This document shows positions 3,597-41,605 of a stretch of DNA of 64,000 nucleotides, piece after piece. A program made the translations under genes and the position numbers. The DNA is from Bacteroidota bacterium (GTDB lineage: Bacteria; Bacteroidota; Ignavibacteria; SZUA-365): positions 33,201-97,200 of the forward strand of contig QKAF01000027.1 of the NCBI GenBank assembly GCA_003246455.1, in the 5' to 3' direction. The first letter of the stretch is position 1. Each line of letters starts with the position of its first letter. Below the pieces are notes generated by a model, which did not search any database, was not told where the DNA came from, and saw only the letters and a program-made list of their open reading frames with translations.

Positions 3597-4670
3597 TTAC
3601 CCTTCGGGAAGCACTGCGCCGGTGGTCCAGTACAGGACGCGGTTGCGGAATCGCTGCTCGGTTTCATGCAGGAGCGGGTGGTCCTGCGGAAGCGGGGGGT
3701 GACTGCCGTCGAAGAAGCGGCCGACGGCATCGATGATTTCGGTGGCCTGGTCGTGCGAGAACAGCGCGGTTCGCAGTTCGTTCGCTCCGTCGAACCGCCG
3801 TGCGTACCAGAGGGCGTGCTTCCGCATGCGGGGGATGGCCCGGAAGGCGCCGAATTCGCGGAGCATGCTTTCGAGATGCCCCGTGGCCAGCTCCTGGATC
3901 GCGGCGATATCCGGCGCACTGTCCCCGACGCCGCAGCTGCGGCCCCGGGCGATGTCGTCGAAAATCCATGGCGTACCGAGGCAGCCGCGCGCCACCATCA
4001 CCGCGGTGCAGCCGGTTTCACGCATCATGCGGGCAGCGTCCGCGGAGGAGAAGACGTCTCCGTTCCCGACGACGGGGACTGAAACGGCGTCGACCGCTTC
4101 GGCGATCGCTTCCCATCGCGCCGCGACGTCATACGGAGTGTTCCGCGAGCGGGCGTGAACCGTGATCAGCGACGCGCCGCCATCCTCCGACGCACGGGCG
4201 ATATCGCGGACACCCTGCCGGGTGTCAGTGCCGCGCATGCGAATTTTTACCGAAATCGGAACCGACGAAGCATTTGCCGCCGCGCGGAGGATTGAGGCGA
4301 AGCGCGGAAGGTCGTCGAGGAGATCGGCCCCGGCCCCCGCCTCGCAGATTCGCTCGTTCGGGCATCCGCAGTTGATATCGAAGAGGTCGGGCTTGAACGG
4401 CAGCAGTTCACGTATGGCCGCTGCGGTTTTGTCGGGTTCGGCCGCCACGAGCTGGATGCCGATAGGGTGTTCTTCCGGAGTGAATACCGCGTTGCGGTAC
4501 GAGGTGGATGCGGCGCGCAAAATCCCCGCGGCACTGACCATCTCGGTGAACGTCAACGCTGCCCCGTAATTTCTGCAGACGTTACGGAAAGGGATATCCG
4601 TCGTCGCGAGCATCGGCGCGAGTATTCCTTTCCCCTTGATTTTATTGATGATATCTGCAGGTTCCATCAT
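3597..4670 (-). CDS. dus: tRNA-dihydrouridine synthase (Dus family).
   Basis: TIM-barrel Dus motifs: MLATTDIPFR, FDINCGCP, and a basic C-terminal tRNA-binding domain. Start chosen at MMEPAD. The longer table ORF start at 4865 is rejected. Confidence 0.8.
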   Translation of the reverse strand: MMEPADIINKIKGKGILAPMLATTDIPFRNVCRNYGAALTFTEMVSAAGILRAASTSYRNAVFTPEEHPIGIQLVAAEPDKTAAAIRELLPFKPDLFDINCGCPNERICEAGAGADLLDDLPRFASILRAAANASSVPISVKIRMRGTDTRQGVRDIARASEDGGASLITVHARSRNTPYDVAARWEAIAEAVDAVSVPVVGNGDVFSSADAARMMRETGCTAVMVARGCLGTPWIFDDIARGRSCGVGDSAPDIAAIQELATGHLESMLREFGAFRAIPRMRKHALWYARRFDGANELRTALFSHDQATEIIDAVGRFFDGSHPPLPQDHPLLHETEQRFRNRVLYWTTGAVLPEG

Positions 4671-14604: not shown

Positions 14605-16650
14605 TTATTTCATCACGGTCATCTTCTTCTGGGTGACCTGACCGGCGACGTTGATCTGATAGATGTACGTACCGGAAGGCAGGTTCTCGGAGCTCATGTG
14701 CACCTGATGCGCACCCGCGTCCTTCATTTCGTCGACGAGCGTTCCGACCTGTTCGCCGAGAGCATTGAAGACCTTGAGGGTCACGTGCCCGGCCTGCATC
14801 AGCTGGTAGCTGATGGTCGTCGTCGGATTGAACGGATTCGGGTAGTTCTGGTACAGCGTCACCGCCGTCGGTGCTGCTTCGAAGAACACGTCCACCATCG
14901 GGGAATAGGCAGAGGTGCCGTCGTTGTCGACCTGGCGGAGGCGGTACTTCACGTTGCCCACGTTGCGGTGGGTTTCGGTGATCGCGTCCTTGAAACCGTA
15001 TGTCATCGGTTCGGTGGTGGTCCCGCGACCTTCGACGAAGCCGATCTTTTCCCAGCTGTCGCCGTTGTTGAAGCTGCGCTCGACCTCGAAACCGAAGTTG
15101 TTGGTTTCCATCGTGATGTCCCAGGTCAGGTCCACGTTCTCACCGTTGACGACGGCTTTGAAGGTGGAGAGTTCGACCGGGATGGTACGGCGCGAGCGAT
15201 AGGCCGCGATACCGTTGTTGGACATCAGGACATACAGGATCACGTGCAGACCGGGGAAGTCGGGATCTTCTTCGATCGTGTAGTATTTGAGCTTGTAATC
15301 GACGTCGGAGATATAGTTTTCCTCAGCCGAGTTGTTGTTGAGCGTCTTGTTTCCGAGCTGCGGCGTGGCGCCCCAGAACGCGAAATCCTGGCCCGGCGTG
15401 GTCACGTCAAGGATGCGGGCAGTCGTGTTGTCATTGGGGATCGTGGGGTCGATGCCACCGGTGGGACGGCCGTCTGCCAGCACGAGGAATTTGCGTCCGT
15501 ACTGCGGAAGTTCGAAATACGCCAGGGTGCCGGAGGCGCCTGTGAGCGAAGTCGACAGGGAGCGGTTACCGGTTGCGTTCTGGCTGTAGGTCTGGGGCCA
15601 GCCGGCGTTGAGGTTCTGAATTTCGGATGCGGAGGTGACCAGGCGCGGATTCGAATCCATCCAGACGTCGCTGAACGCCACCGTCGACGTCGCATCGATC
15701 GGTGTCGCGGCAACGCCGTGGGAGGCCAGACCGCTGATCGAGTTGACGAGCCGCACGGCAAGGCGGTATTCGAGTTTTCCGCCGCCGGTGACGTCGCGGT
15801 TGGGACGCTGCGCAGTCGGGCGCAGATCGGCGAGGATTACATCCACTTCGCGGTTCCACTCCGGCTGCGTCGGCCACGAGCCGCCCGAGGCATAAATGCG
15901 TACCGAGTCGACCAGGTACGGAGGATCGGGTGCCGGCGGGGTGTACATTGCGCGCTTGCCGACGACATCAAAGGCATCGCCCCAGCGCGTATAGCTCATT
16001 TCACTGCTGTTGATGTTTCCGACGGCAGTACCGCCCCCATTGAGCGTCGCATATGTCAACATCGGGGTGGCTTTGTCATCGTCCCAGCGCCAGACACGGA
16101 AGGGACCCTGTCCGAGATACACGGGATCGCACTGGCCGCTCGGCAGAAGGATGCAGATACCCCAGACCGGAACAACGAGGTTGCAGGCGAAAATACGGCC
16201 TTCGTCATCAAGATCGATGCGATAGAGGCAATACGTATTCTGCGAATAGCCGCGATTGGTGGTCGTGGGTGTGATCGTATCGATGGGTACGGCGAGCTCG
16301 CCGCCGAGTCCGCGGTTGATGGCGTCGGCGGAACGGCCAACGTTCAGTGCCGGCTGCCCGTTTTCCGCATTCCATGCGTAAATGCGCGGGGTCTGCCAGA
16401 ACGTCGGACCGGAAACAGTCGTGTGCGGGTTGACGATGTACACCACATCCCGCCACTTGTCATAGGCAAGTCCGGTGAACGACTTGCTCGGAATCATCCA
16501 TGCGTTGGGGTGATTCGGTTGCGTCGGGGGAGGGGGGACGTTGCGCCACAGCTCTTCCCAATCGATGTTGCCCTGCGCACTCATCTGCGCGGGCAGCATC
16601 GCCATGAGCAATGCGAGCATGCAGCCAGTAGTCAGTAGAATTTTCCTCAT
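14605..16650 (-). CDS. T9SS C-terminal-sorting-domain secreted protein (681 aa), paralog A.
   Basis: Signal peptide, then a C-terminal ~80-aa domain LYQNYPNPFNPTTTISYQL...GTYIYQINVAGQVTQKKMTVMK (TIGR04183-type). Confidence 0.75.
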   Translation of the reverse strand: MRKILLTTGCMLALLMAMLPAQMSAQGNIDWEELWRNVPPPPTQPNHPNAWMIPSKSFTGLAYDKWRDVVYIVNPHTTVSGPTFWQTPRIYAWNAENGQPALNVGRSADAINRGLGGELAVPIDTITPTTTNRGYSQNTYCLYRIDLDDEGRIFACNLVVPVWGICILLPSGQCDPVYLGQGPFRVWRWDDDKATPMLTYATLNGGGTAVGNINSSEMSYTRWGDAFDVVGKRAMYTPPAPDPPYLVDSVRIYASGGSWPTQPEWNREVDVILADLRPTAQRPNRDVTGGGKLEYRLAVRLVNSISGLASHGVAATPIDATSTVAFSDVWMDSNPRLVTSASEIQNLNAGWPQTYSQNATGNRSLSTSLTGASGTLAYFELPQYGRKFLVLADGRPTGGIDPTIPNDNTTARILDVTTPGQDFAFWGATPQLGNKTLNNNSAEENYISDVDYKLKYYTIEEDPDFPGLHVILYVLMSNNGIAAYRSRRTIPVELSTFKAVVNGENVDLTWDITMETNNFGFEVERSFNNGDSWEKIGFVEGRGTTTEPMTYGFKDAITETHRNVGNVKYRLRQVDNDGTSAYSPMVDVFFEAAPTAVTLYQNYPNPFNPTTTISYQLMQAGHVTLKVFNALGEQVGTLVDEMKDAGAHQVHMSSENLPSGTYIYQINVAGQVTQKKMTVMK

Positions 16651-27334: not shown

Positions 27335-27832
27335 CATGAAGAGATAGGGTTTCCAGAGTTCCTCGACGGCGTGGGCCGACTGGACGATGAAGGACACGCG
27401 TGACGGACGGCGCGGGACGCTTTTGAGGGTCATGCCGGCGCGTTCCGGTGTATGATCGCGTTTGCGGTTGTTGCAGGGCAGGCAGGCGGTGACGAGGTTT
27501 TCCCAGCTGTCCTTTCCGCCGCGCGCGCGGGGGATAATGTGGTCGACAGTCAGCGGAGCACTGGTCCCGCCGCAGTACTGGCAGCGATGGCCGTCGCGCC
27601 GCAGAATGTTTTTCCGCGAAAGGATGACATTCTTGAACGGGACGCGTTTGTAATGGGAGAGACGGATGACACTGGGGAAGGGGTAGGGGGCGTTGACGGT
27701 GCGGATTTTGCGAAGGGGGTTCTCGATGACGATATCCGCTTTTTCGAGATACAGAAGAATTACGGCCTTCTGCACGCTGCAGACACTGAGCGGTTCGTAA
27801 CTCTGGTTCAGGACGAGAACGCGACCGCTGAT
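27329..27832 (-). CDS. Small HNH endonuclease (cyanobacterial-type HNH family). N-terminus extends upstream of the first canonical start.
   Basis: HRCQYCG...LTVDHIIPRARGG..WENLVTACLPCN. The conserved N-terminal block RVLVLNQSYEPLSVCSVQKA continues in-frame upstream of the GTG at 27775. The only family-consistent initiator is an ATC at ~27832. The in-frame stop is at ~27887. Confidence 0.65.
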   Translation of the reverse strand: MSGRVLVLNQSYEPLSVCSVQKAVILLYLEKADIVIENPLRKIRTVNAPYPFPSVIRLSHYKRVPFKNVILSRKNILRRDGHRCQYCGGTSAPLTVDHIIPRARGGKDSWENLVTACLPCNNRKRDHTPERAGMTLKSVPRRPSRVSFIVQSAHAVEELWKPYLFMA

Positions 27833-30578: not shown

Positions 30579-30601
30579 ATAGTGCGATAATCGGACACTT
30601 T

Positions 30602-30625
30602 GGCGTTTTTTTAAGTAAAAACGCC
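30602..30625 (+). terminator. Hairpin GGCGTTTTT-ttaagt-AAAAACGCC followed by a T-rich tract. Probable terminator of the epimerase gene.
   Basis: Perfect 9-bp stem, followed by GATTTTCATTT. Confidence 0.45.
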
Positions 30626-30699
30626 GATTTTCATTTGGCATGATTTGTGAACGATAATTAGCGATTGATTTAGCTCCTCACCATCTAGCCAACACGCAT

Positions 30700-31538: not shown

Positions 31539-33044
31539 GTGGCACAGCGGAAACGGATCGACATCTTCTTCATTCTCTACCTCACCGCGATACTCGGTTT
31601 CGTGGTTGTTTCGAGGGAACGCGATAAAATCGATGAAGGAATGCATGAACTGAACGAACAGATCGTCCGGACGTTTGTCCCCCCTGTTCCGCTGAGACCG
31701 GAGGGCGACACGCTGCGTTGCTATGTCGACGCCGATTCGAACGGCATCGTCATCGGCGACCCGCGGGTGTTCGAGACGAAAGTGTTCGCTGGCGACATCA
31801 CCCCGGACGATGCGGTTTCCCTCTCCCTGCACAGTGTCATTCACGACGGGACGCTGACCACGCCCGATATCGTCTCGATCGGACCGCGCACGGCCGCGGG
31901 CGAAATAGCCGACCAGGAAGTGTTTTTCCCCGTCACCGGACTGTTCCCGCGTACCGGCGTCTATCATGTCAACATCGCGGCGAAGGCCCGACGGGTGCAT
32001 GAAAGCAGCCCGGGCGTGTTCGTCTACCGCGGAAAGCAGTTTGACACGTCGCTCGTCAGCCGGGAGATGATCGCTTCGGTGGAACAGTCGCGGCTGACGA
32101 TGACCGTGGTCGTCGAAGACACCTCGCTCGATCATATGACCTCCCTCCAGAGCCTGCAGATCGAGGCGGCGCGTGCGGAGATCACCTCCGCGATCGGATT
32201 CGAAGAGCGCAACACAGTCACGATCAATCTCGGCTGGGCCGCGCCGACGATGACCATCGTGCGCGGGGGAGGGCAGCTTCGCGAACTCACCCGCACTGAT
32301 CGCATGGTGGAATATGTCTGGAGCGGCGCGGTCACGAGCATGCCGTATACCGTCGAGATCGAGGCGCGCGCGAACCGCGGCGCCGGCGGTCGGGACATTG
32401 CCCGCACGCGTTTTTCCGTGTCCGGAATTCAGCCGTTTCTGCGTATGGCTCCTCCCGACATGGTGTTCGCCGGGGAGGATATCAATTTCGATATCAGCGT
32501 CGAGGGACTCGATAATCCGGCCCAGTACAGCTGGCGGCTGTTCGAGGAAGTCGGGCAGGGAGAACCCCTGCTGAAAATGGAGGGGCGCGGTTCACGGGTC
32601 GCCTACCGTATCCCGAACTCCTACGCCGACAAGCATCTCGTGGTCGAGGCCCGGTATAACGGCCGTCCCTATCGTTTCATCTCCCGCGCGTCGTATGCCT
32701 CGGGCAGCTCCCGCTTTGCCCTGCCGGTTGTCGAACCGCCCACGCGCATCGGGCTGGACCTGCCCGCGCGCGCAGCCGCGACGGCATCGTTCCGTTTCAC
32801 CGCATCGAAATACAATGACATCCGTTTCCGCGGCGAGCAGCCGATCGACCGCCTCGCCGACGTGCAGGTGGAACTCACCAATGAGGAAGGGAACGTGCTC
32901 GCCTCGGACGTATGGATGATGCGGAAAGGAGAATTCGAGTTTTCGCTCGAAAATCGTACGTCCATCCGCAAAGGCGGAGAGAGAATTATCGTCCGGATTC
33001 ACGCCGGTGGAAACACCGCGCAGCGCAGCATTCAGCTGTATTAA
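31539..33044 (+). CDS. GldM/PorM-sized bitopic periplasm-spanning protein with an ExbD/TolR-like acidic TM residue, copy 1 (M1).
   Basis: 501 aa. N-terminus MAQRKRIDIFFILYLTAILGFVVV is a single TM resembling the ExbD/TolR IDV-hydrophobic motif. Followed by a ~450-aa periplasmic beta-rich region. Confidence 0.5.
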   Translation: MAQRKRIDIFFILYLTAILGFVVVSRERDKIDEGMHELNEQIVRTFVPPVPLRPEGDTLRCYVDADSNGIVIGDPRVFETKVFAGDITPDDAVSLSLHSVIHDGTLTTPDIVSIGPRTAAGEIADQEVFFPVTGLFPRTGVYHVNIAAKARRVHESSPGVFVYRGKQFDTSLVSREMIASVEQSRLTMTVVVEDTSLDHMTSLQSLQIEAARAEITSAIGFEERNTVTINLGWAAPTMTIVRGGGQLRELTRTDRMVEYVWSGAVTSMPYTVEIEARANRGAGGRDIARTRFSVSGIQPFLRMAPPDMVFAGEDINFDISVEGLDNPAQYSWRLFEEVGQGEPLLKMEGRGSRVAYRIPNSYADKHLVVEARYNGRPYRFISRASYASGSSRFALPVVEPPTRIGLDLPARAAATASFRFTASKYNDIRFRGEQPIDRLADVQVELTNEEGNVLASDVWMMRKGEFEFSLENRTSIRKGGERIIVRIHAGGNTAQRSIQLY

Positions 33045-34168: not shown

Positions 34169-35776
34169 ATGGCTCATACTGCCGACCACTATAAAAAATA
34201 CCAGGTTTACTTCTTCCTGTATCTGGCTGTGATCTGCGAGCTTCTCATCATCATCGTGGAACGCGATGATGCGGAAGCCGACCTGCTTATGCAGCAGCGG
34301 ATGCTGGAAGAAAAGAATCGTAAGATCATTCTCGAGCTCCTCAAGAACATGCCCGCGGTGGCCGCGGCCGGTGACAACCAGCTGAAGGTCAACGAAGAGC
34401 GCAAGTTCACGATCAACGTGAAGGGTCTTGGCGAGAACGATGAAGTGACGACGCCCCCGGAAGTCAAGGTGTTCAAGGACGGTACCGAGATGGGTACCCT
34501 CAAGTACCCGCAGGACATCCAGGATTCCATCGTGCACGGCACGACCGGCGAACGTCTCTATCGCTTCACATGGAAGGCCGAAAGCGGTCCCGGCACCTAC
34601 GAACTGTGGGTGCAGGCCGGAACCAACCGCGTGTCCCTGACTCCGGATCTCGAGCAGGGCGAGGCGAAAATCAAGGTCGGAACGCTCGAATTCTCCCGCA
34701 AGGAGATCCGCTCCGCTCTCGATTCCGACCCGGATCTTCGCGGAACGCCGGTGGAGCACTTCATCGAGAAATCGGAAAATCTGATGCCCGATAAATTCGT
34801 TGTCGAAGTGGTTTCCGAGGAATACGATCAGCTGCAGATTCAGGCAGATCCGATCGTGACCGCCGTCGGCTTCCCGACCTTCAACGAAATCAAGGTTCGC
34901 GGTACCACCGTGGACAAGATCTCCAACATGAATATCGTCGGCGGCGGCGTCGCCCTGCGTCCTGACAACCAGCGCAACCCGTATTACAGCCCGGATCCCG
35001 AGCGCGGCAAGTGGGTGTGGTCCAACACCTACAATGACGCCGGCACGAAGTCCGTCAGTGTCGATGCGCGTGACAACCGCTCCGCGGGCGTCAAGAGCGT
35101 TTCCCGTCCCATCAGCTTCGATGTCATCGTGAAGGAGCCGTACCTGAGCCGCCGCAAACCGAGCGGTGCGTTTTCCGGCGAAATCTTCGAAATGAACATC
35201 AACGTCGCCGGTCTCGAAGACGTCGGTTCCTACGACTGGACCATCGAGATCGACAACGCGCAGGTGGAGAAGGGCAAAGGCAACGTGGTCAAGTACAAGG
35301 TGCCGGAAGATGCGCTGGGCAAGACCTTGACCATCAAGTCAACCTACAGGAACCGGGTGTACCAGGTACTGGTCGATTCTTCAGCGACGAACCTGACCTC
35401 TTCCGAATTCCTGTTCAACATCACCGCCCCTATCGACCGAATTGGATCGCAGTCCTTCGCGAATGGCGGCGAATACCCGATCAATAACGTCTTCCAGTTT
35501 GTCGCAGCCCGCTGCGGCCGGTGTATCGGATCCAATATCCGTAACATCCAGCCTTCCGACATCCGTGTGGAAGTGGAATCTGAAGACGGTCAGGATCTGC
35601 TTGCCGATACTCCCGAGGTTTTCCAGCGGACGAACCCGAATACCGGGGCAGACCAGGGCAGCCTTGTGAAATTCTATCTGAAGGGCAAAGTCGGCCGCGA
35701 CGGAACCGAGGCGACGATCACAATCCGTTACGGTGCCGTCAATGAGCGTTACACGGTCATGCTCTATCAGGAGTAA
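34169..35776 (+). CDS. GldM/PorM-sized bitopic periplasm-spanning protein, copy 2 (M2).
   Basis: 535 aa. N-terminus HYKKYQVYFFLYLAVICELLIIIVERDD is a single TM containing Glu. Large periplasmic region with Ig-like beta repeats. Confidence 0.5.
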   Translation: MAHTADHYKKYQVYFFLYLAVICELLIIIVERDDAEADLLMQQRMLEEKNRKIILELLKNMPAVAAAGDNQLKVNEERKFTINVKGLGENDEVTTPPEVKVFKDGTEMGTLKYPQDIQDSIVHGTTGERLYRFTWKAESGPGTYELWVQAGTNRVSLTPDLEQGEAKIKVGTLEFSRKEIRSALDSDPDLRGTPVEHFIEKSENLMPDKFVVEVVSEEYDQLQIQADPIVTAVGFPTFNEIKVRGTTVDKISNMNIVGGGVALRPDNQRNPYYSPDPERGKWVWSNTYNDAGTKSVSVDARDNRSAGVKSVSRPISFDVIVKEPYLSRRKPSGAFSGEIFEMNINVAGLEDVGSYDWTIEIDNAQVEKGKGNVVKYKVPEDALGKTLTIKSTYRNRVYQVLVDSSATNLTSSEFLFNITAPIDRIGSQSFANGGEYPINNVFQFVAARCGRCIGSNIRNIQPSDIRVEVESEDGQDLLADTPEVFQRTNPNTGADQGSLVKFYLKGKVGRDGTEATITIRYGAVNERYTVMLYQE

Positions 35777-35839: not shown

Positions 35840-37885
35840 ATGAGCAAACAATTTCTTTTACGTGCCTTTCTCTTCGTGGCACTCGTTGTAGGCCTCATGC
35901 CGCAGCTTTTTGCTCAGACCGACCGTGAGGTAAAGAGCAAACAGACGGATCTGAAGCACGAATACAACGACGCCTCTGAGAAAAACCAGATCATCAAGTC
36001 GGCGGCAGAGGACAAGCCGCGTGCGACGACCGGCCGCCGGCGCAGTTCGGCCACGACCGGTTACGATTACACGCAGGTGAAGGGATTTGCCCTTCGCCAG
36101 TTCAACGATCGCATCGACAAGGTGTTCGCCCGCGCCAACGATCTCGGCCTGTTCGAGGAAGAGTACCGTCTCGACGGTACCTTCCCGGTCCCCGGCCGCC
36201 AGGGCAAGGGCAGCGCGCAGATGCGCAAAATCGAGGTGTACTACGTCGAAGCAACGCCCGAGGAACAGGAACAGTTCGATATCGAGCCGTTCCAGATCAT
36301 CGAGGTGTATGTGGAAAAGCTGGAAACCCTGCCGCCTGAGGAAACCGCGGGCGAAACGGAAGAAGGCGGTCTCGGCCTCGGCTTCGACGCAAGCGCGTCC
36401 GAGCCGATCGCAAAGGGATATTCCCTTGCCGGAACCGATCTGACCAGCGTCCTGCAGCTTGCCGACGAAGCACTGTATGACGATATCCTTGCGAAGCGCA
36501 GCCAATCCAATCCGATTCCGCTTCCGGAACGCGGCGACTGGATGCCCGGCAAGGTCGGTCCTTTCATCGTCATGACCCAGCGCGAACTGGAAACCACCAC
36601 GAGTCGTTTCCGTGACTTCTGGAACATGCGCGATACGCTTGAAAGCGCGATCATCCCGCCGCAGTTCGAAGCGGCCGGTCCTTTCTATACCGGCAGCATT
36701 CCGATGTTCTACCCGGAAGCGAGCAAGGTGCGTGTCCGCAACCCGGAACGCAATCAGCCGCTGAAGATCACCAGCGCCGTCTTCGTTGGCGACAATGCCG
36801 ACAAGTGGGAAATCCGCACCAAGCTTCCGAAGGTTCTCGCCGGCAAGGGCGAAGCCAATGACAAGGAAGACATCGAATTCGCCTATATCGGCGGATCGGA
36901 ATACGAAACCCGCGGACAGCTGCTCATCGACGCAAAGGAAGCCAACCTCCAGCAGATCGTCGAGATCGTGTCCAACCCCGGACGGTATCCGGCCGACGTC
37001 GTGACGCTCGATGCGTCGCTCGACCGCGTCGAACTCCGCTCGCCCGCACGTTCCGGCTTCGCCCCGAACTGGAAGCTGGCCTATGTCATCGGCAACGATG
37101 AAGTCGGTCTGCCTCGCTGGTCCACGGGCATTTCCTCCCTCAGCGTGGGATACAAGAATCAGATGAGCGTCGGCGTCGTGCTTCCGATGAACATGACGGC
37201 TCCCGACCTTCCGACGCCGCTGGCGTTCGAGAAGAACCTGATGTCGTCGCCGAGCGGTTACAACGTCGCCTTCGATTTCACGTTCGGCTTCCCCTTCTCC
37301 CTCGGCGGAAACCTGACGGTCATCAACGATTATTCCGCGCAGGATGCGTACGATCACCTGAAGGTCATGCATATGAACTTCGATCCGCAGGTTGACCTGA
37401 AAGACTATGACAACGATTTCTTCCATATCTCCACGATCGCGCAGGTGTACTACCCGATCATGTTCAAGGATAATGCGGTCAATCCCAGTCTCGCATTCCG
37501 TCTGAACCTTGGTGGTGCCTTCATGCAGATCAAGCGAGATCACCTGGTCACCGATGCAGATCCGCTCGGCATGGGCAAGGAAGGCCGCATCTTCAAGACC
37601 GAAGAGATCGGCAAAATGGTCACGCTCGGCAAGGAAAAAGATCTCGTAGACGTGTACATTCGCATGTCCTTTATCAATCTGCGTTCCGCCAACAAGTACG
37701 GCATGGGCATTCAGTATTTCGCCGGCCGCATGATGGCGGATGCCTTCCTTGAACTCACCGAATGGCTGCGCGTGGACGCGAAGTACTCCTTCCTGCTCCG
37801 CGACCAGGAGATCTGGGAGACCGAAAGCAGTTACTTCCTCATCACTCCGCGCCTGCGTATCGGGCTGCCCTCCATTTTTAACTGA
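35840..37885 (+). CDS. Putative outer-membrane beta-barrel protein (OMP-A, ~680 aa).
   Basis: Signal peptide MSKQFLLRAFLFVALVVGLMPQLFAQ. C-terminal alternating hydrophobic beta-strands ending ...RLRIGLPSIFN. C-terminal block paralogous to the next gene. Confidence 0.45.
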   Translation: MSKQFLLRAFLFVALVVGLMPQLFAQTDREVKSKQTDLKHEYNDASEKNQIIKSAAEDKPRATTGRRRSSATTGYDYTQVKGFALRQFNDRIDKVFARANDLGLFEEEYRLDGTFPVPGRQGKGSAQMRKIEVYYVEATPEEQEQFDIEPFQIIEVYVEKLETLPPEETAGETEEGGLGLGFDASASEPIAKGYSLAGTDLTSVLQLADEALYDDILAKRSQSNPIPLPERGDWMPGKVGPFIVMTQRELETTTSRFRDFWNMRDTLESAIIPPQFEAAGPFYTGSIPMFYPEASKVRVRNPERNQPLKITSAVFVGDNADKWEIRTKLPKVLAGKGEANDKEDIEFAYIGGSEYETRGQLLIDAKEANLQQIVEIVSNPGRYPADVVTLDASLDRVELRSPARSGFAPNWKLAYVIGNDEVGLPRWSTGISSLSVGYKNQMSVGVVLPMNMTAPDLPTPLAFEKNLMSSPSGYNVAFDFTFGFPFSLGGNLTVINDYSAQDAYDHLKVMHMNFDPQVDLKDYDNDFFHISTIAQVYYPIMFKDNAVNPSLAFRLNLGGAFMQIKRDHLVTDADPLGMGKEGRIFKTEEIGKMVTLGKEKDLVDVYIRMSFINLRSANKYGMGIQYFAGRMMADAFLELTEWLRVDAKYSFLLRDQEIWETESSYFLITPRLRIGLPSIFN

Positions 37886-37899
37886 AAGGAGGCAGCACC

Positions 37900-39612
37900 A
37901 TGAAGAACCACACAGTATCAAGCACGGAACAACACGGCATGCAGATGAAAAACCGACTTCTTTCGATTCTCGCAGCACTTCTCGTTCTCGCCTGGCTCGC
38001 TCCCAATGCGGCACAGGCCCAGAGCTCGGATGATGCCCTGACGAGCGTCGAGCAGATCATGCGATACATGAAGAGCGCGAATTACTCGGAAGACGATATG
38101 CTCCAGCGCATGGCCTGGGGCGACCAGATCGTCAACGAACTCGTTTCCTTCAAGGCGTCTGAAGACGATCGTCAGAACTATCTCCGTCTTCTCGATATCG
38201 CCATCGATCATTACAAGGACGAGAACGACCGCCTCCGCATTCTTCTGCGTGCGCTCACCACCCTCGATCCCCTGGTGGCGAAGTACTTCCCGCAGTGGGT
38301 GATCCAGGACGAACCGATGATTCTCGAAGTCATGCGCAAGGTCCGTGATAACCGCGACGATCTGCTCGATGCGGACGCCGTCGGTATCGCCGAGCGCGTG
38401 CTCACCGGCAAGGCCCGGATGCGCGTCATCCAGAGCCCGAAAGACGATCAGAACCTGATCGCCATCTACATCGAAAAGGCGCGTCCCCATGACGACGAAA
38501 AGCTTTCTGCCGGCTTCCTGCCGAACAAGGACAACGGCGATTTCGACGACTATCGTATCGTCGGCCGCCGCAACCTTCGTGAGATCCTCACTCCGGACCT
38601 CTACGACGCAGTGGTCGCCAAGCAGTCGTATGCGCATCTCGACGAAACGGGCGCGGTCAAACCGCAGCCGTACGTTGCCGAAGCGACGATCAGCGTTCCT
38701 TTCGGCGGTGGTTTCATGTGGACCCTGGATTCGGACGAGCGCATCGGCGACGGCGTCACGCTGCAGCCTTCGCGCATCCGCGCCGGGTTCGAACTGAAAA
38801 TCGGCAACGACTGGGTGAACCTGCCGTTCCTGTACGGCGCGCAGTGGAATACGCTGTTCGTCTACGAGCCGTCCGCTACCGAGCGGGTCAAGATCGGTCC
38901 GTCCATTCCCTTCACCTGGGGTGACAAGAGCATCTCGGAGAATTTCCCGATCTTCAAACCGCGTACCCTCAACGGGACGTGGGGCGCGGCCGGTGAATAC
39001 TACAAGCAGCTCTCCAACGTCGCGGGCGCACCGGGCGTGGACGCAGACGGAATCGGCGCCGCCGCCTTCGTCTCCTTCGGCCTGAAGACCCTCGGCAACA
39101 AGAAGATCACCAACCTCGACGGTACCATCATCAACGGCGACGGTGCGGAAGCCGCGCTGCAGCTGCCGCTGACCCCGGCGGATGCCCAGAAAGCGCATTT
39201 CTACTACCTCGCGAATTCCGCGAACCTGTTCTACTGGCGTGACCTCGGCTTCATGCTCAGCGGTCTCCGCCTGCATGCCGGTCTCGGATATCAGAAGACC
39301 GTCGAAGCCGTTCGCCAGAATCCGTTCGACCAGCCCAACCAGTCCGCATGGAATCCTGACAGCGTCAGCATCGTCAGCGACAACAGCGTCCTGGATGCGT
39401 TCGTGCGCCTTTCCTACGATCACGGCGGCAAGACCACGTACGGCGTGGCGCTGCAGTATTTCAACGGCGGCGTGATGGGCGAGGTGTACCTCAACATCTT
39501 CAGCTGGATGCGCGCGGAAGTCAAGTACTCGCGCATGCTGTTCCGCGATCCGGAAGTCTGGGAACACGAAGAAATGATCGTGCCCGGCCTTCGCTTTGGC
39601 TTCGCATTCTAA
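37900..39612 (+). CDS. Putative outer-membrane beta-barrel protein (OMP-B, 570 aa), paralog of OMP-A.
   Basis: RBS aaggagg. Signal peptide ...LAWLAPNAAQAQ. C-terminus ...WMRAEVKYSRMLFRDPEVWEHEEMIVPGLRFGFAF ends in Phe (beta-signal). Aligns with the OMP-A C-terminus WLRVDAKYSFLLRDQEIWETESSYFLITPRLRIGL. Confidence 0.45.
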   Translation: MKNHTVSSTEQHGMQMKNRLLSILAALLVLAWLAPNAAQAQSSDDALTSVEQIMRYMKSANYSEDDMLQRMAWGDQIVNELVSFKASEDDRQNYLRLLDIAIDHYKDENDRLRILLRALTTLDPLVAKYFPQWVIQDEPMILEVMRKVRDNRDDLLDADAVGIAERVLTGKARMRVIQSPKDDQNLIAIYIEKARPHDDEKLSAGFLPNKDNGDFDDYRIVGRRNLREILTPDLYDAVVAKQSYAHLDETGAVKPQPYVAEATISVPFGGGFMWTLDSDERIGDGVTLQPSRIRAGFELKIGNDWVNLPFLYGAQWNTLFVYEPSATERVKIGPSIPFTWGDKSISENFPIFKPRTLNGTWGAAGEYYKQLSNVAGAPGVDADGIGAAAFVSFGLKTLGNKKITNLDGTIINGDGAEAALQLPLTPADAQKAHFYYLANSANLFYWRDLGFMLSGLRLHAGLGYQKTVEAVRQNPFDQPNQSAWNPDSVSIVSDNSVLDAFVRLSYDHGGKTTYGVALQYFNGGVMGEVYLNIFSWMRAEVKYSRMLFRDPEVWEHEEMIVPGLRFGFAF

Positions 39613-39739
39613 CGCGAACGCCTTTTCGAACGATTGACATACGTGCAGGCGGTGGACACATCCCATCGCCTGCACATGTTTTTAACCGTGATTTTTTCGA
39701 CAAGGTGGAACCAGCCCGCGATTCAATCCGTTCCGTTCA

Positions 39740-41119
39740 TTGAAACCGCGTGCCGAATCAAGCGTTATGCCCGTTAATACGTTCGTTCCATTATACATTG
39801 TCATCGCCGTTCTTCTCGCCCTGCCGGGAGGGCAGGACCTGTACTCCGCGCCCCAGGCGACAGGGATCCAGCCGGGCGACAGCCTGCGCAAACCGACCAT
39901 CATCTCCGCTCGCAGCAAACACCCCGAAGCCGTTACCGTCTCCATCCGCGCCGTCGACATCAGCCGCTACCCCGAGGTCAGCGTCATTCTCGATGCGCGC
40001 GACTCACTCGGAAATCACTTCCCGAGCCTGAGGAAGAGCGACATGGTGATCTACCAGGACAGCGCGCCGGTGGAAGTGGAATCGCTCGAGAAGATTTCCG
40101 CGAACAACAGTTTCCCCGTCGATATTGCGTTCATCATCGATCAGACGGGAAGCATGTCGCAGGAGGTCTACGAAGTCAAGGCCAACATCATTGATTTCAC
40201 GCAGCGCCTTGCATCCCGCGGAGTGGACTATCGTCTCGCGCTGCTGACATTCAGCGACCGGATCGAACGCTACAAGGATTTCACCGAGGACGTGAAAACC
40301 TTCATCGGATGGATCGACGGGCTGAAGATCGGCGGGGGGATGGACGACAACGAGAATGCGCTGGAAGGGATGTTCGAAGCCACGTCATTCAAATTCCGTC
40401 AGAGTGCGCAGAGGATCTTCATCCTCATCACCGACGCGATGTTCCATCAGAAAGGGGACAAGGGGTACGGGAAAACCGATTTTACCGCGAAGACGATGAC
40501 GGACTTCCTTCTCAAACAGAACATCAAGCTCTTCGCAATCACTCCGCCGCAGATCTCTGAATACAAGTACATGACCGAGGCGACCCGAGGAAAGCGCTTC
40601 AACATCATCGAAGATTTCAGTTCCATCCTCGACGAATTCAGCGAGTCGCTGACGAATCTCTACGCCATCCGGTATCACATCACCGAGGAAGTCCCTCCGG
40701 AAAAAATGAACCTGGAGATTCGCAACTCCCAGGACGAGGTCGTGCTGCAGGAAGAGGTCACCGTGCTCGACGTCGACAAGAAATTCGTGCTGGAGAACAT
40801 CCTGTTCGATTTCAATCGCGCCACCTTCGATATGTCCTATACCGACGAATTGAAGAACATTCTCGCGATGCTGCGCAAGTACGAGAACATTCACATCGAG
40901 ATCCGCGGACACACCGATTTCATCGGAAGCGACGAGTACAATATCGCGCTCTCCGACGCACGCGCCCGCGCAGTGAAGAAATACCTTGTGGACCGCGGTA
41001 TCGGCGAGATGCGGATAACGACGCGCGGCATGGGGAAATCGCAGCCCATCGCGCCAAACGACACCGAACTCGGCCGCCGTCTCAATCGTCGTACGGAAGT
41101 CATCATCACGCGGAAGTGA
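39740..41119 (+). CDS. vWA-domain protein with C-terminal OmpA-like peptidoglycan-binding domain.
   Basis: MIDAS motif DIAFIIDQTGSM...T...D (vWA). C-terminal NILFDFNRATF...HIEIRGHTDFIGSDEYNIALSDARARAV...TRGMGKSQPIAPNDTELGRRLNRRTEV (OmpA_C). Confidence 0.8.
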   Translation: MKPRAESSVMPVNTFVPLYIVIAVLLALPGGQDLYSAPQATGIQPGDSLRKPTIISARSKHPEAVTVSIRAVDISRYPEVSVILDARDSLGNHFPSLRKSDMVIYQDSAPVEVESLEKISANNSFPVDIAFIIDQTGSMSQEVYEVKANIIDFTQRLASRGVDYRLALLTFSDRIERYKDFTEDVKTFIGWIDGLKIGGGMDDNENALEGMFEATSFKFRQSAQRIFILITDAMFHQKGDKGYGKTDFTAKTMTDFLLKQNIKLFAITPPQISEYKYMTEATRGKRFNIIEDFSSILDEFSESLTNLYAIRYHITEEVPPEKMNLEIRNSQDEVVLQEEVTVLDVDKKFVLENILFDFNRATFDMSYTDELKNILAMLRKYENIHIEIRGHTDFIGSDEYNIALSDARARAVKKYLVDRGIGEMRITTRGMGKSQPIAPNDTELGRRLNRRTEVIITRK

Positions 41120-41155: not shown

Positions 41156-41569
41156 CTATTCACCCATGATTTTAATGATAAGCCGCTTGGGCCGCCGACC
41201 GTCGAACTCGGCGTAGTAAATCTGCTGCCACGGACCGAAGTCGAGGGCGCCCGCCGTGACCGGGACGATCACTTCATGATGCACGAGCAGGCTTTTGAGG
41301 TGCGCGTCCCCGTTTGTCTCGCCCGTCCGATGATGGCGGTAATCGCGACGGAACGGAGCGAGGTATTCGAGCCAGTCGTCGATGTCCTGCAGGAGCCCGT
41401 TCTCGGCATCGTTGACCCAGACGCCGGCGGTAATATGCATTGCGGAAACCAGGATCATTCCCTCGCGGATGCCGCTTTTTCGCAGCGCGTCTTCGACCTC
41501 CGAGGTGATATTGACATACTCCCGCTTCTGCGGGGTGTTGAATGTCAGGTATTCAGTGTGGAATTTCAT
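41156..41569 (-). CDS. YjbQ/UPF0047-family protein (secondary thiamine-phosphate synthase-like).
   Basis: [25 protein letters not shown]...[17 protein letters not shown]...[16 protein letters not shown]. It is only the C-terminal part of the 898-aa table ORF; the remainder of that ORF is an antisense shadow of recD2. Confidence 0.7.
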
Positions 41570-41605
41570 GAACATTCTCCTCAGGCGTGAACGATAGTCA
41601 GAACC

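Follow-up and report, generated by a model that had tools for sequence, protein, structure and literature searches.

The locus described here raises the question of what a protein made of a vWA (von Willebrand factor A) domain and an OmpA_C peptidoglycan-binding domain might do at the end of a gene cluster whose other products have no known relatives. It lies in a stretch of 64,000 nucleotides from an Ignavibacteria genome of the Bacteroidota (assembly GCA_003246455.1, contig QKAF01000027.1, positions 33,201–97,200; the whole of this stretch is referred to hereafter as the window), in which six genes, L1, M1, L2, M2, OMPA, and OMPB, precede the gene for this protein, vWA-OmpA_C, on the same strand. 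The protein probably anchors to the cell wall an envelope complex that has yet to be described, for which a motor nature, as proposed in a first-pass annotation made from the DNA letters, is without support.

vWA-OmpA_C keeps company with M and a pair of OMP proteins

When each species was represented by a single genome, a homologue scan yielded 79 loci, every one in Ignavibacteria, Kapabacteria, or Chlorobi-group metagenome-assembled genomes (MAGs); no cultured isolate is among the best 80 genome hits. An OMP (outer-membrane protein) homologue ends no more than 900 nt upstream, on the same strand, at 60 of 62 loci (down to 37% protein identity), and an M homologue is found 3–8 kb upstream at 53 of 55, whereas L homologues lie upstream at 12 of 55; the constant partners of vWA-OmpA_C are therefore M and the OMP pair, and not L. 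The first-pass annotation had staked its reading on co-occurrence with the upstream genes in relatives, which was borne out for OMP and M alike; a further check that it proposed, whether vWA-OmpA genes accompany GldLM-like pairs in other genomes, came out positive for the M member and, at most loci, negative for L. The association is also visible from the opposite direction, in that 22–23 of approximately 27 M-OMP-OMP metagenome loci, retrieved by a search anchored on the M alignment (the OMP alignment having no stretch conserved enough for this purpose), end with a vWA gene. At the distant, Kapabacteria-type loci the unit consists of M-OMP1-OMP2-vWA only, with unrelated genes before M and no L genes nearby. 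The gene does close its cluster, as had been annotated, being both the last plus-strand member of the window cluster and the terminal one in the conserved gene set.

Domain anatomy and an integrin-type MIDAS

The vWA-OmpA_C open reading frame is real and runs on the plus strand from 39740 (TTG) to 41119, the former having been taken as its start. Gene calls on two metagenome contigs that encode an identical protein begin instead at the ATG at 39767, giving 450 residues, and this start is also favored because a candidate promoter (described below) ends at 39732; translation is thus likely to begin at 39767, and not at 39740. The resulting coding sequence (39767..41119, plus strand) specifies an exported protein combining a β-sandwich, an integrin-β-like vWA domain, and OmpA_C, and its AlphaFold2 (AF2) model (predicted local distance difference test score, pLDDT, 83.4; predicted template modeling score, pTM, 0.76) divides into four parts.

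At the N-terminus is a hydrophobic signal peptide (MPVNTFVPLYIVIAVLLALPGGQDLYSAPQ, approximately residues 1–30, 39767..39856, plus strand), presumably cleaved, which is continued by a low-confidence linker to approximately residue 54 (pLDDT below 50 at residues 19–41). Homologues are likewise hydrophobic in this region, where their sequence is unconserved and carries no conserved transmembrane Asp or Cys, and the window protein has no Cys anywhere. Because the N-terminus is hydrophobic, because there is no Cys and because no charge is conserved there, we regard vWA-OmpA_C as an exported soluble protein, neither a lipoprotein nor a MotB-type anchor. The first β-strand half of a sandwich follows (residues 55–110, 39929..40096, plus strand; strands at 55–109 by DSSP, with the conserved motif IRNVDISRFPEV), and then the integrin βI-like vWA domain itself (residues 116–296, 40112..40654, plus strand; delimited by Pfam and the AF2 fold). 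Further strands lie beyond the vWA domain (residues 299–332, 40661..40762, plus strand; DSSP), and in the model these probably complete the sandwich, so that the vWA domain would be an insertion comparable with the hybrid/βI arrangement of integrins; structural alignments extend over 207–226 residues for integrin chains that include the hybrid domain, against 177–179 for βI alone. The cassette of residues ~55–310 recurs as a single unit in other proteins (below). The C-terminal OmpA_C peptidoglycan-binding domain occupies residues 339–449 (40781..41113, plus strand; Pfam and AF2 fold).

The fusion that had been read from the sequence was recovered by Pfam profiles, both domains scoring above curated cut-offs: VWA (PF00092) at residues 119–286 (E 3.6e-11, 44 bits against a cut-off of 23.8) and OmpA (PF00691) at residues 346–441 (E 2.7e-21, 76.2 bits against 27.2, spanning model positions 1–98 of 98). 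For PF00092 the score is accompanied by a Rossmann-like α/β fold. The protein is a member of the OmpA_C and vWA superfamilies, and of none of the specific families with which we compared it.

Conservation was followed in an alignment of 46 homologues (35–92% identity), and in this the MIDAS (metal ion-dependent adhesion site), annotated as an intact DxTGS motif, stood up well. MIDAS loop 1, D125-Q-T127-G-S129 (DQTGS, 40139..40153, plus strand), aligns with DVSAS of integrin β8; D125, T127, and the adjoining M130 are present in 46 of 46 sequences, and at position 129 there is Ser in 32 sequences and Thr in the other 14. By phmmer alignment and conservation, the loop GGMDDNENALE (40334..40366, plus strand), with D193, E196, and N197 all invariant, is the counterpart of the integrin D-x-P-E metal-binding loop, and T222-D223-A-x-x-H227-Q (40430..40450, plus strand) supplies the third MIDAS element through its invariant Asp, comparable with integrin MTDQ. 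The site is complete (D125-x-T127-x-S/T129 plus D223), with the classical Thr replaced by the integrin-β-type D193/E196 loop; judged by its residues, it is a MIDAS of the integrin-β type (DxTxS ... D/E ... D) and differs from the classical DxSxS..T..D form. The OmpA_C motif, TDFIGSDEYNIALSDARA (40913..40966, plus strand), is as canonical as first described and corresponds to the peptidoglycan (diaminopimelic acid)-binding motif, with D384 and R399 invariant in all homologues; T383, N440, R441, R442, and E444 (the last belonging to the NRRxE motif) are likewise invariant. The peptidoglycan role of this Asp/Arg pair is established by structures of OmpA-like domains with peptidoglycan.

The integrin β headpiece is both the best structural match for the vWA domain and its only match among PDB sequences, a phmmer search with the vWA region against all of these returning integrin β8 only (E 6e-4) and pairing DQTGSM with DVSASM, GGMDDNENALE with GNIDTPEGGFD, and ITDA with MTDQ (window protein first). 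Common to the two are the D-x-[ST]-x-S-M motif, the D-x-x-E loop, the TD motif, and the strands on both sides of the vWA domain, placed as those of the hybrid domain. Identity is however 15–18%, and the window protein is without PSI or EGF domains, transmembrane segment, cytoplasmic tail, or α-subunit partner; the integrin synergistic-site Asn is replaced by Gly, and the Asp pair of the ADMIDAS is absent. A match to the integrin β chain profile (PF00362) reached 35 bits over profile positions 89–153 of 248 only, with no other integrin domains present. The vWA domain resembles, on sequence grounds, an integrin βI domain in a protein that is not an integrin.

A terminator-like hairpin between OMPB and vWA-OmpA_C

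The spacing between OMPB and vWA-OmpA_C is 154 nt and contains a terminator-like hairpin (39643..39685, plus strand; consensus scan and RNA fold), composed of a 13-bp stem (9 G-C pairs) and a 7-nt loop, followed by ATGTTTTTAA; the predicted fold has a ΔG of −27.8 kcal/mol and a z-score of −5.9. In a crude scan, a hairpin with a T-run was present at the OMP/vWA junction of 43 of 69 related loci, close relatives keeping the identical hairpin and distant clades having an unrelated one, also with a T-run (e.g., CCCTCTGAC...GAGGG-T7 in Kapabacteria). Beyond the hairpin lies a candidate extracytoplasmic function (ECF)-sigma-type promoter, GGAAC-N17-CGTT (39707..39732, plus strand), which ends ~35 nt before the ATG at a position that is kept in relatives: Of 17 intergenic regions from close relatives, 7 have the pattern GGAA[CG]-N17-CGT 30–37 nt before the ATG, the number expected from shuffled sequences being 0.18 and the relatives not being independent of one another. 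No enrichment of the ECF-like pattern was seen across the window, and a sigma-70 consensus scan gave no promoter ahead of vWA-OmpA_C; the ECF-type identity of the promoter, and its function, are putative. In Kapabacteria the gap from T-run to ATG is only 30–40 nt, so that expression by read-through may occur there.

A terminator together with an own promoter had been named in the first-pass annotation as the mark of an unrelated gene. The hairpin and the candidate promoter are largely of the kind named there, but the conclusion of unrelatedness is contradicted by the synteny, and an intrinsic terminator between neighbors does not by itself disprove functional linkage. vWA-OmpA_C is functionally linked to the module and probably transcribed separately from it, the likely design being one in which expression of the fourth component is tuned on its own.

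Two minor features of the same hairpin may be recorded. The Rfam model tpke11 gives a sub-threshold match to window 39618–39691 on the minus strand (28.1 bits against a gathering score of 43, E 2.8e-4), which is probably a mere hairpin resemblance on the strand opposite the intercistronic element. The 10-mer GCAGGCGRTG occurs six times in the window against 0.55 expected (at 27482, 28260, 39645, 39664 on the minus strand, 43354, and 62608); a hairpin is formed only by the copies at 39645 and 39664, with none at 27482 or 62608 (both read).

A proposed wall-bound adaptor for the M-OMP module

We favor, at slightly better than even odds (roughly 0.55), the reading that vWA-OmpA_C is a periplasmic, peptidoglycan-bound adaptor whose MIDAS face would grip either the two OMPs or the M tip. 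The protein would be Sec-exported, soluble, and periplasmic, with the C-terminal OmpA_C domain binding peptidoglycan non-covalently and the N-terminal cassette of β-sandwich and vWA domain turning a MIDAS face with bound metal toward a partner protein. In Ignavibacteria and Kapabacteria it is the fourth component of a conserved envelope module whose other members are M, an immunoglobulin-like (Ig) rod anchored in the inner membrane, and the OMP1 and OMP2 paralogues; an acidic side chain from the periplasmic domain of an OMP or from the distal domain of M would complete the MIDAS coordination. The complex would thereby be fixed to the cell wall, with vWA-OmpA_C a static anchor or adaptor by analogy with OmpA_C domains of the Pal, PorE, and MotB type. 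As to expression, the hairpin would end the OMP transcript; the ECF-type promoter of the window clade probably drives the vWA gene, and read-through may do so elsewhere.

OmpA_C wall anchors (Pal, MotB, PorE, TagL) fix diderm envelope machines to peptidoglycan; here such an anchor is joined to an integrin-β-like, putatively metal-dependent adhesion cassette, and is tied to M, to OMP1/2, and, for some lineages, to L, families without known relatives that span two Bacteroidota/Chlorobi-group classes with few cultured members. The module may be new, and vWA-OmpA_C, as its sole annotated member, provides a handle on its role.

The transmembrane (TM) helix of M (GKVYFVLYLAVILELLIIIVERDEAEE) shows ~70% identity between clades over a 33-residue tblastn segment, against ~20% for whole proteins, with conserved charges at E24 and E31-R32-D33 (comparison of the M2 N-terminus at window 34169–34290, locus L032 at 4236–4350, and the M alignment), and this suggests a specific intramembrane partner. 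A bolder, and only tentative, version of the adaptor reading would make M-OMP1-OMP2-vWA/OmpA_C an undescribed trans-envelope machine of Ignavibacteria and Kapabacteria, in which the M helix couples to an ion-driven partner (L, with its intramembrane Glu, wherever L genes exist, or otherwise another stator) and vWA-OmpA_C, bound to the wall, grips the OMP pair through its MIDAS. Were this version true, bacteria would have an anchor of the integrin type at work within the periplasm.

Several observations weigh against a dedicated periplasmic adaptor. The cassette alone does not imply a periplasmic partner, because it is also found in giant proteins, two of the three scanned having a type IX secretion system (T9SS) sorting tail. 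The sole long form examined, MBK8911457.1, is a stand-alone gene in Chlorobi-group genomes and has no M or OMP neighbors; three loci of one Kapaibacterium clade (L039, L049, and L050) have the vWA gene without M or OMPs nearby, and four soil-clade loci (L110, L116, L117, and L121, at ~14950–16000) have M-OMP1-OMP2 without the vWA gene. The outer-membrane label of the OMPs rests on a signal peptide, β-rich C-terminal conservation, and a terminal aromatic residue only. Lastly, the terminator-like hairpin means that vWA-OmpA_C may be regulated independently of the module. Much of this is what a general housekeeping envelope tether of the OmpA/Pal kind, expressed from its own promoter and with no dedicated partner in M-OMP-OMP, would lead one to expect: a conserved hairpin and then a candidate own promoter, a homologue of the MBK8911457.1 type that is monocistronic and stands alone, and loci in which gene and module are parted. 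We nevertheless consider such a tether unlikely, given that adjacency and order persist in those 60 of 62 genomes to 37% identity, across intergenic regions that are themselves unrelated, which is unusual for unrelated neighbors, and that the short form is almost confined to the M-OMP-OMP context.

Comparison with GldLM, PorE, MotB, and other envelope systems

The first-pass annotation had framed the locus as a motor cluster with GldLM-like pairs, and had likened the role of vWA-OmpA_C to that of PorE or MotB; on this account the protein would anchor the stator of a GldLM-like rotary motor that is driven by protons and encoded by L and M. There are resemblances that would suit it: L1 and L2 have in common a hairpin of two TM helices whose intramembrane Glu is invariant, M is bitopic with a charged, conserved TM helix and a periplasm-spanning Ig rod that is GldM-like in outline, solitary L-M pairs exist (once beside two proteins with T9SS sorting tails), and OmpA_C and the C-domain of PorE share 37% identity. 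The scarcity of L argues against it, most loci having no L gene in cis and the Kapabacteria loci none nearby, as does the lack of any profile or fold link between L or M and GldL or GldM. In a member-wise NCBIfam scan the lone GldL match (TIGR03513, E 0.09) came from one of nine L1 alignment members and fell inside the coiled coil, and the same scan of the M alignment returned no GldM, nor did Pfam or PDB sequences. L1 and L2 were rejected as GldL/PorL on hhalign probabilities of 0.3% and 0.2% against the GldL TM region (6YS8, 7SAZ, 7SAU), a TM Glu alone not being diagnostic; M was rejected as GldM/PorM when Foldseek of the M2 AF2 model against the PDB placed generic tandem-Ig structures, with no GldM or PorM, in the top 50, the TM plus Ig-rod outline not being diagnostic either. 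No Pfam match to MotA-like proteins was seen in the cluster, and a literature search for GldL/GldM in Ignavibacteria found nothing. The likeness to an energized machine is one of outline only (the L Glu, the charged M helix, and the M rod) and is unproven; together with the absence from vWA-OmpA_C of the hallmarks of PorE and MotB (below), this makes the rotary-motor account distinctly unlikely.

PorE (PG1058) is an outer-membrane lipoprotein with TPR, WD40 β-propeller, and CRD domains (PMC5053529, PMC12773672), whereas the window protein has no Cys (hence no lipobox) and a vWA cassette in place of the TPR, β-propeller, and CRD; the NCBIfam PorE profile (NF052230) scored 84 bits against a cut-off of 600, over the OmpA_C region only. 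NCBIfam MotB profiles gave 42–67 bits against cut-offs of at least 250, and the N-terminus is of signal type, with no MotB-type TM helix bearing Asp, such that MotB/PomB was likewise set aside. The comparison with PorE and MotB thus holds to the extent that an OmpA_C domain is common to all and that a peptidoglycan anchor or adaptor fits the anatomy, and fails as regards membership of either family. Pal (TIGR02802) was rejected at 75.3 bits against 125, with no Cys and no tol genes among the immediate neighbors scanned. With OmpA_C proteins of the Pal, MotB/PomB, and YiaD types in general, the peptidoglycan-binding fold and motif are shared (NCBIfam YiaD 125 bits, PA1041 106, Pal 75), but all matches are below curated cut-offs and limited to residues ~315–450, and the window protein has neither a lipobox nor an Asp TM helix. 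The FtsZl1/vWA/OmpA operons linked to membrane remodeling (PMC2875224) were dismissed as a parallel, no FtsZ-like, GTPase, or kinase gene being present here. Finally, TM-tethered vWA "force transducers" adjoin TolQR-like motors in what is proposed to be a periplasmic, energized trans-envelope system (PMC12204202); these have no OmpA_C and are held in the inner membrane by a helix of either the TonB-like SHLS or the TolR-like Asp kind, whereas vWA-OmpA_C has no helix of this sort but a signal peptide and a peptidoglycan-binding domain.

The vWA cassette and its fusion to OmpA_C recur

That the vWA fusion is unusual, as first remarked, did not survive a wider search. When 1.84 billion representatives were searched exhaustively with phmmer, 152 proteins matched at E up to 1e-30, and the best 150 were classified: 12 have the short cassette plus OmpA_C (the family of the window gene), 40 are longer proteins (650–1100 residues) that also join the cassette to OmpA_C, 40 have the cassette only, often in tandem, and 58 have OmpA_C only. 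The vWA plus OmpA_C fusion is a recurrent architecture in this lineage, and the short form is set apart by being attached to M-OMP-OMP.

Three of the longer proteins were scanned and read VWA + CarboxypepD_reg + OmpA, a PorE-like tail. The long forms of Chlorobi-group bacteria, such as MBK8911457.1 (943 residues; Chlorobi bacterium, L166/L167 10001–12832), have a cassette ~35% identical to that of the window protein and the same domain order, and are distinguished by an extra N-terminal region of ~350 residues that belongs to no known family. In MBK8911457.1 this region comes ahead of vWA cassette, CarboxypepD_reg, and OmpA_C, has no Pfam match, and shows an alternating hydrophobic pattern suggestive of a β-barrel. 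A Rosetta-stone comparison of the N-terminal 400 residues of 16 long forms with the M, L, and OMP proteins gave nothing significant and no Pfam family. Proteins P0217, P0218, P0221, and P0263, up to 3306 residues in length, have between two and five copies of the cassette (~35% identity to residues 55–305). Among the three that were scanned, Por_Secre_tail and cohesin domains are present in P0221 and P0263 (with PKD in P0263 also), and P0217 has cohesin, PKD, BNR, and FlgD_ig domains, with no sorting-tail match.

A further likeness is to CglB and CglD of the Myxococcus xanthus Glt gliding apparatus, whose integrin-like vWA domains have a functional MIDAS and act at the surface (bioRxiv 10.1101/2023.10.19.562135). 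Here too an integrin-like vWA protein stands beside a putative trans-envelope apparatus with bitopic inner-membrane and paralogous outer-membrane proteins; CglB and CglD are, however, surface-exposed outer-membrane lipoproteins without OmpA_C, from a different phylum, and the Glt-M/OMP likeness is one of outline. That the site of action of the window cassette lies beyond the periplasm, or that its action there is brief, as a secreted or surface adhesin, a substrate, an assembly factor, or an OMP-channel plug held by OmpA_C only before export, would accord with the sorting domains of P0221 and P0263 and with the CglB/CglD precedent, but is highly improbable for a protein with no T9SS sorting domain or lipobox and with all its peptidoglycan-binding residues invariant in the family, which argues for a periplasmic resident.

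Upstream gene families and exceptional loci

The six genes upstream of vWA-OmpA_C, all on the plus strand, fall into the families L, M, and OMP. L1 (30700..31467, 255 residues) combines a hairpin of two TM helices, in which Glu121 is invariant, with a coiled-coil tail; L2 (33288..34121, 277 residues), a lineage-specific accessory gene, encodes a multi-TM protein whose intramembrane Glu217 hardly varies. The two are distant paralogues that have in common the two-TM hairpin with its invariant Glu (hhalign probability 83%, E 9e-6). M2 (34169..35776, 535 residues; AF2 pLDDT 88.3) is a bitopic inner-membrane protein with the TM helix YFFLYLAVICELLIIIVERDDAE, a long helix, and approximately five Ig-like domains, and M1 (31539..33044, 501 residues) is its paralogue (24% identity, E 1e-20). 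OMPA/OMP1 (35840..37885, 681 residues) is a paralogue of OMPB/OMP2 (37900..39612, 570 residues), sharing a C-terminal region of ~330 residues; the latter, the constant upstream neighbor, is exported, ends in ...GLRFGFAF, and belongs to no known family. For none of the six proteins did Pfam (E up to 10) or NCBIfam (E up to 1) yield a useful match, Pfam matched no member of the OMP alignment when these were scanned one by one, and the M, L1, L2, and OMP profiles found nothing significant among all PDB sequences.

Paralogous L-M pairs without OMPs or a vWA gene are present at locus L084 (534–7422, MAG JBATDG010000109.1) and at L098–L102. At L084 the pair is directly followed by two BNR/sortilin β-propeller proteins with T9SS C-terminal sorting domains, and M paralogues number at least three in this MAG.

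At the loci of the Kapaibacterium clade that lacks M and OMPs, the vWA-OmpA_C orthologue (38% identity; L049 7847–11272, with L039 and L050 alike) comes after a DegT-type aminotransferase gene and a gene for a 292-residue exported protein, the stop of which overlaps the vWA start. Among the soil-clade loci without a vWA gene, L116, L117, and L121 have, after OMP2, a C-terminally TM-anchored protein of ~260–280 residues (...LQRWSIFALLREAGIEPKRKNF...), and at L110 a similar protein comes after a further ~4 kb; the vWA gene is present at the sister loci, L105 and L107.

On its 3′ side the window cluster is followed by a convergent UPF0047 gene (41156–41572, minus strand) and, beyond this, by genes for RecD2, PAS, and M16 peptidase proteins (Pfam scan). 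Its 5′ flank is formed by an epimerase gene, which is kept upstream of the cluster in close relatives, and a flippase gene. A terminator-like hairpin with a T-run lies at window 30600–30627, after the epimerase gene and just before L1, and because of this the L1-to-vWA cluster seems to begin its own transcription unit. Several MAG TPA records with the cluster (L005, L014, L016, L017, L019–L022, L037, and others) are titled "uncultured Chromatiales," "Hyphomicrobiales," "Ectothiorhodospiraceae," or "Alphaproteobacteria," labels that look wrong.

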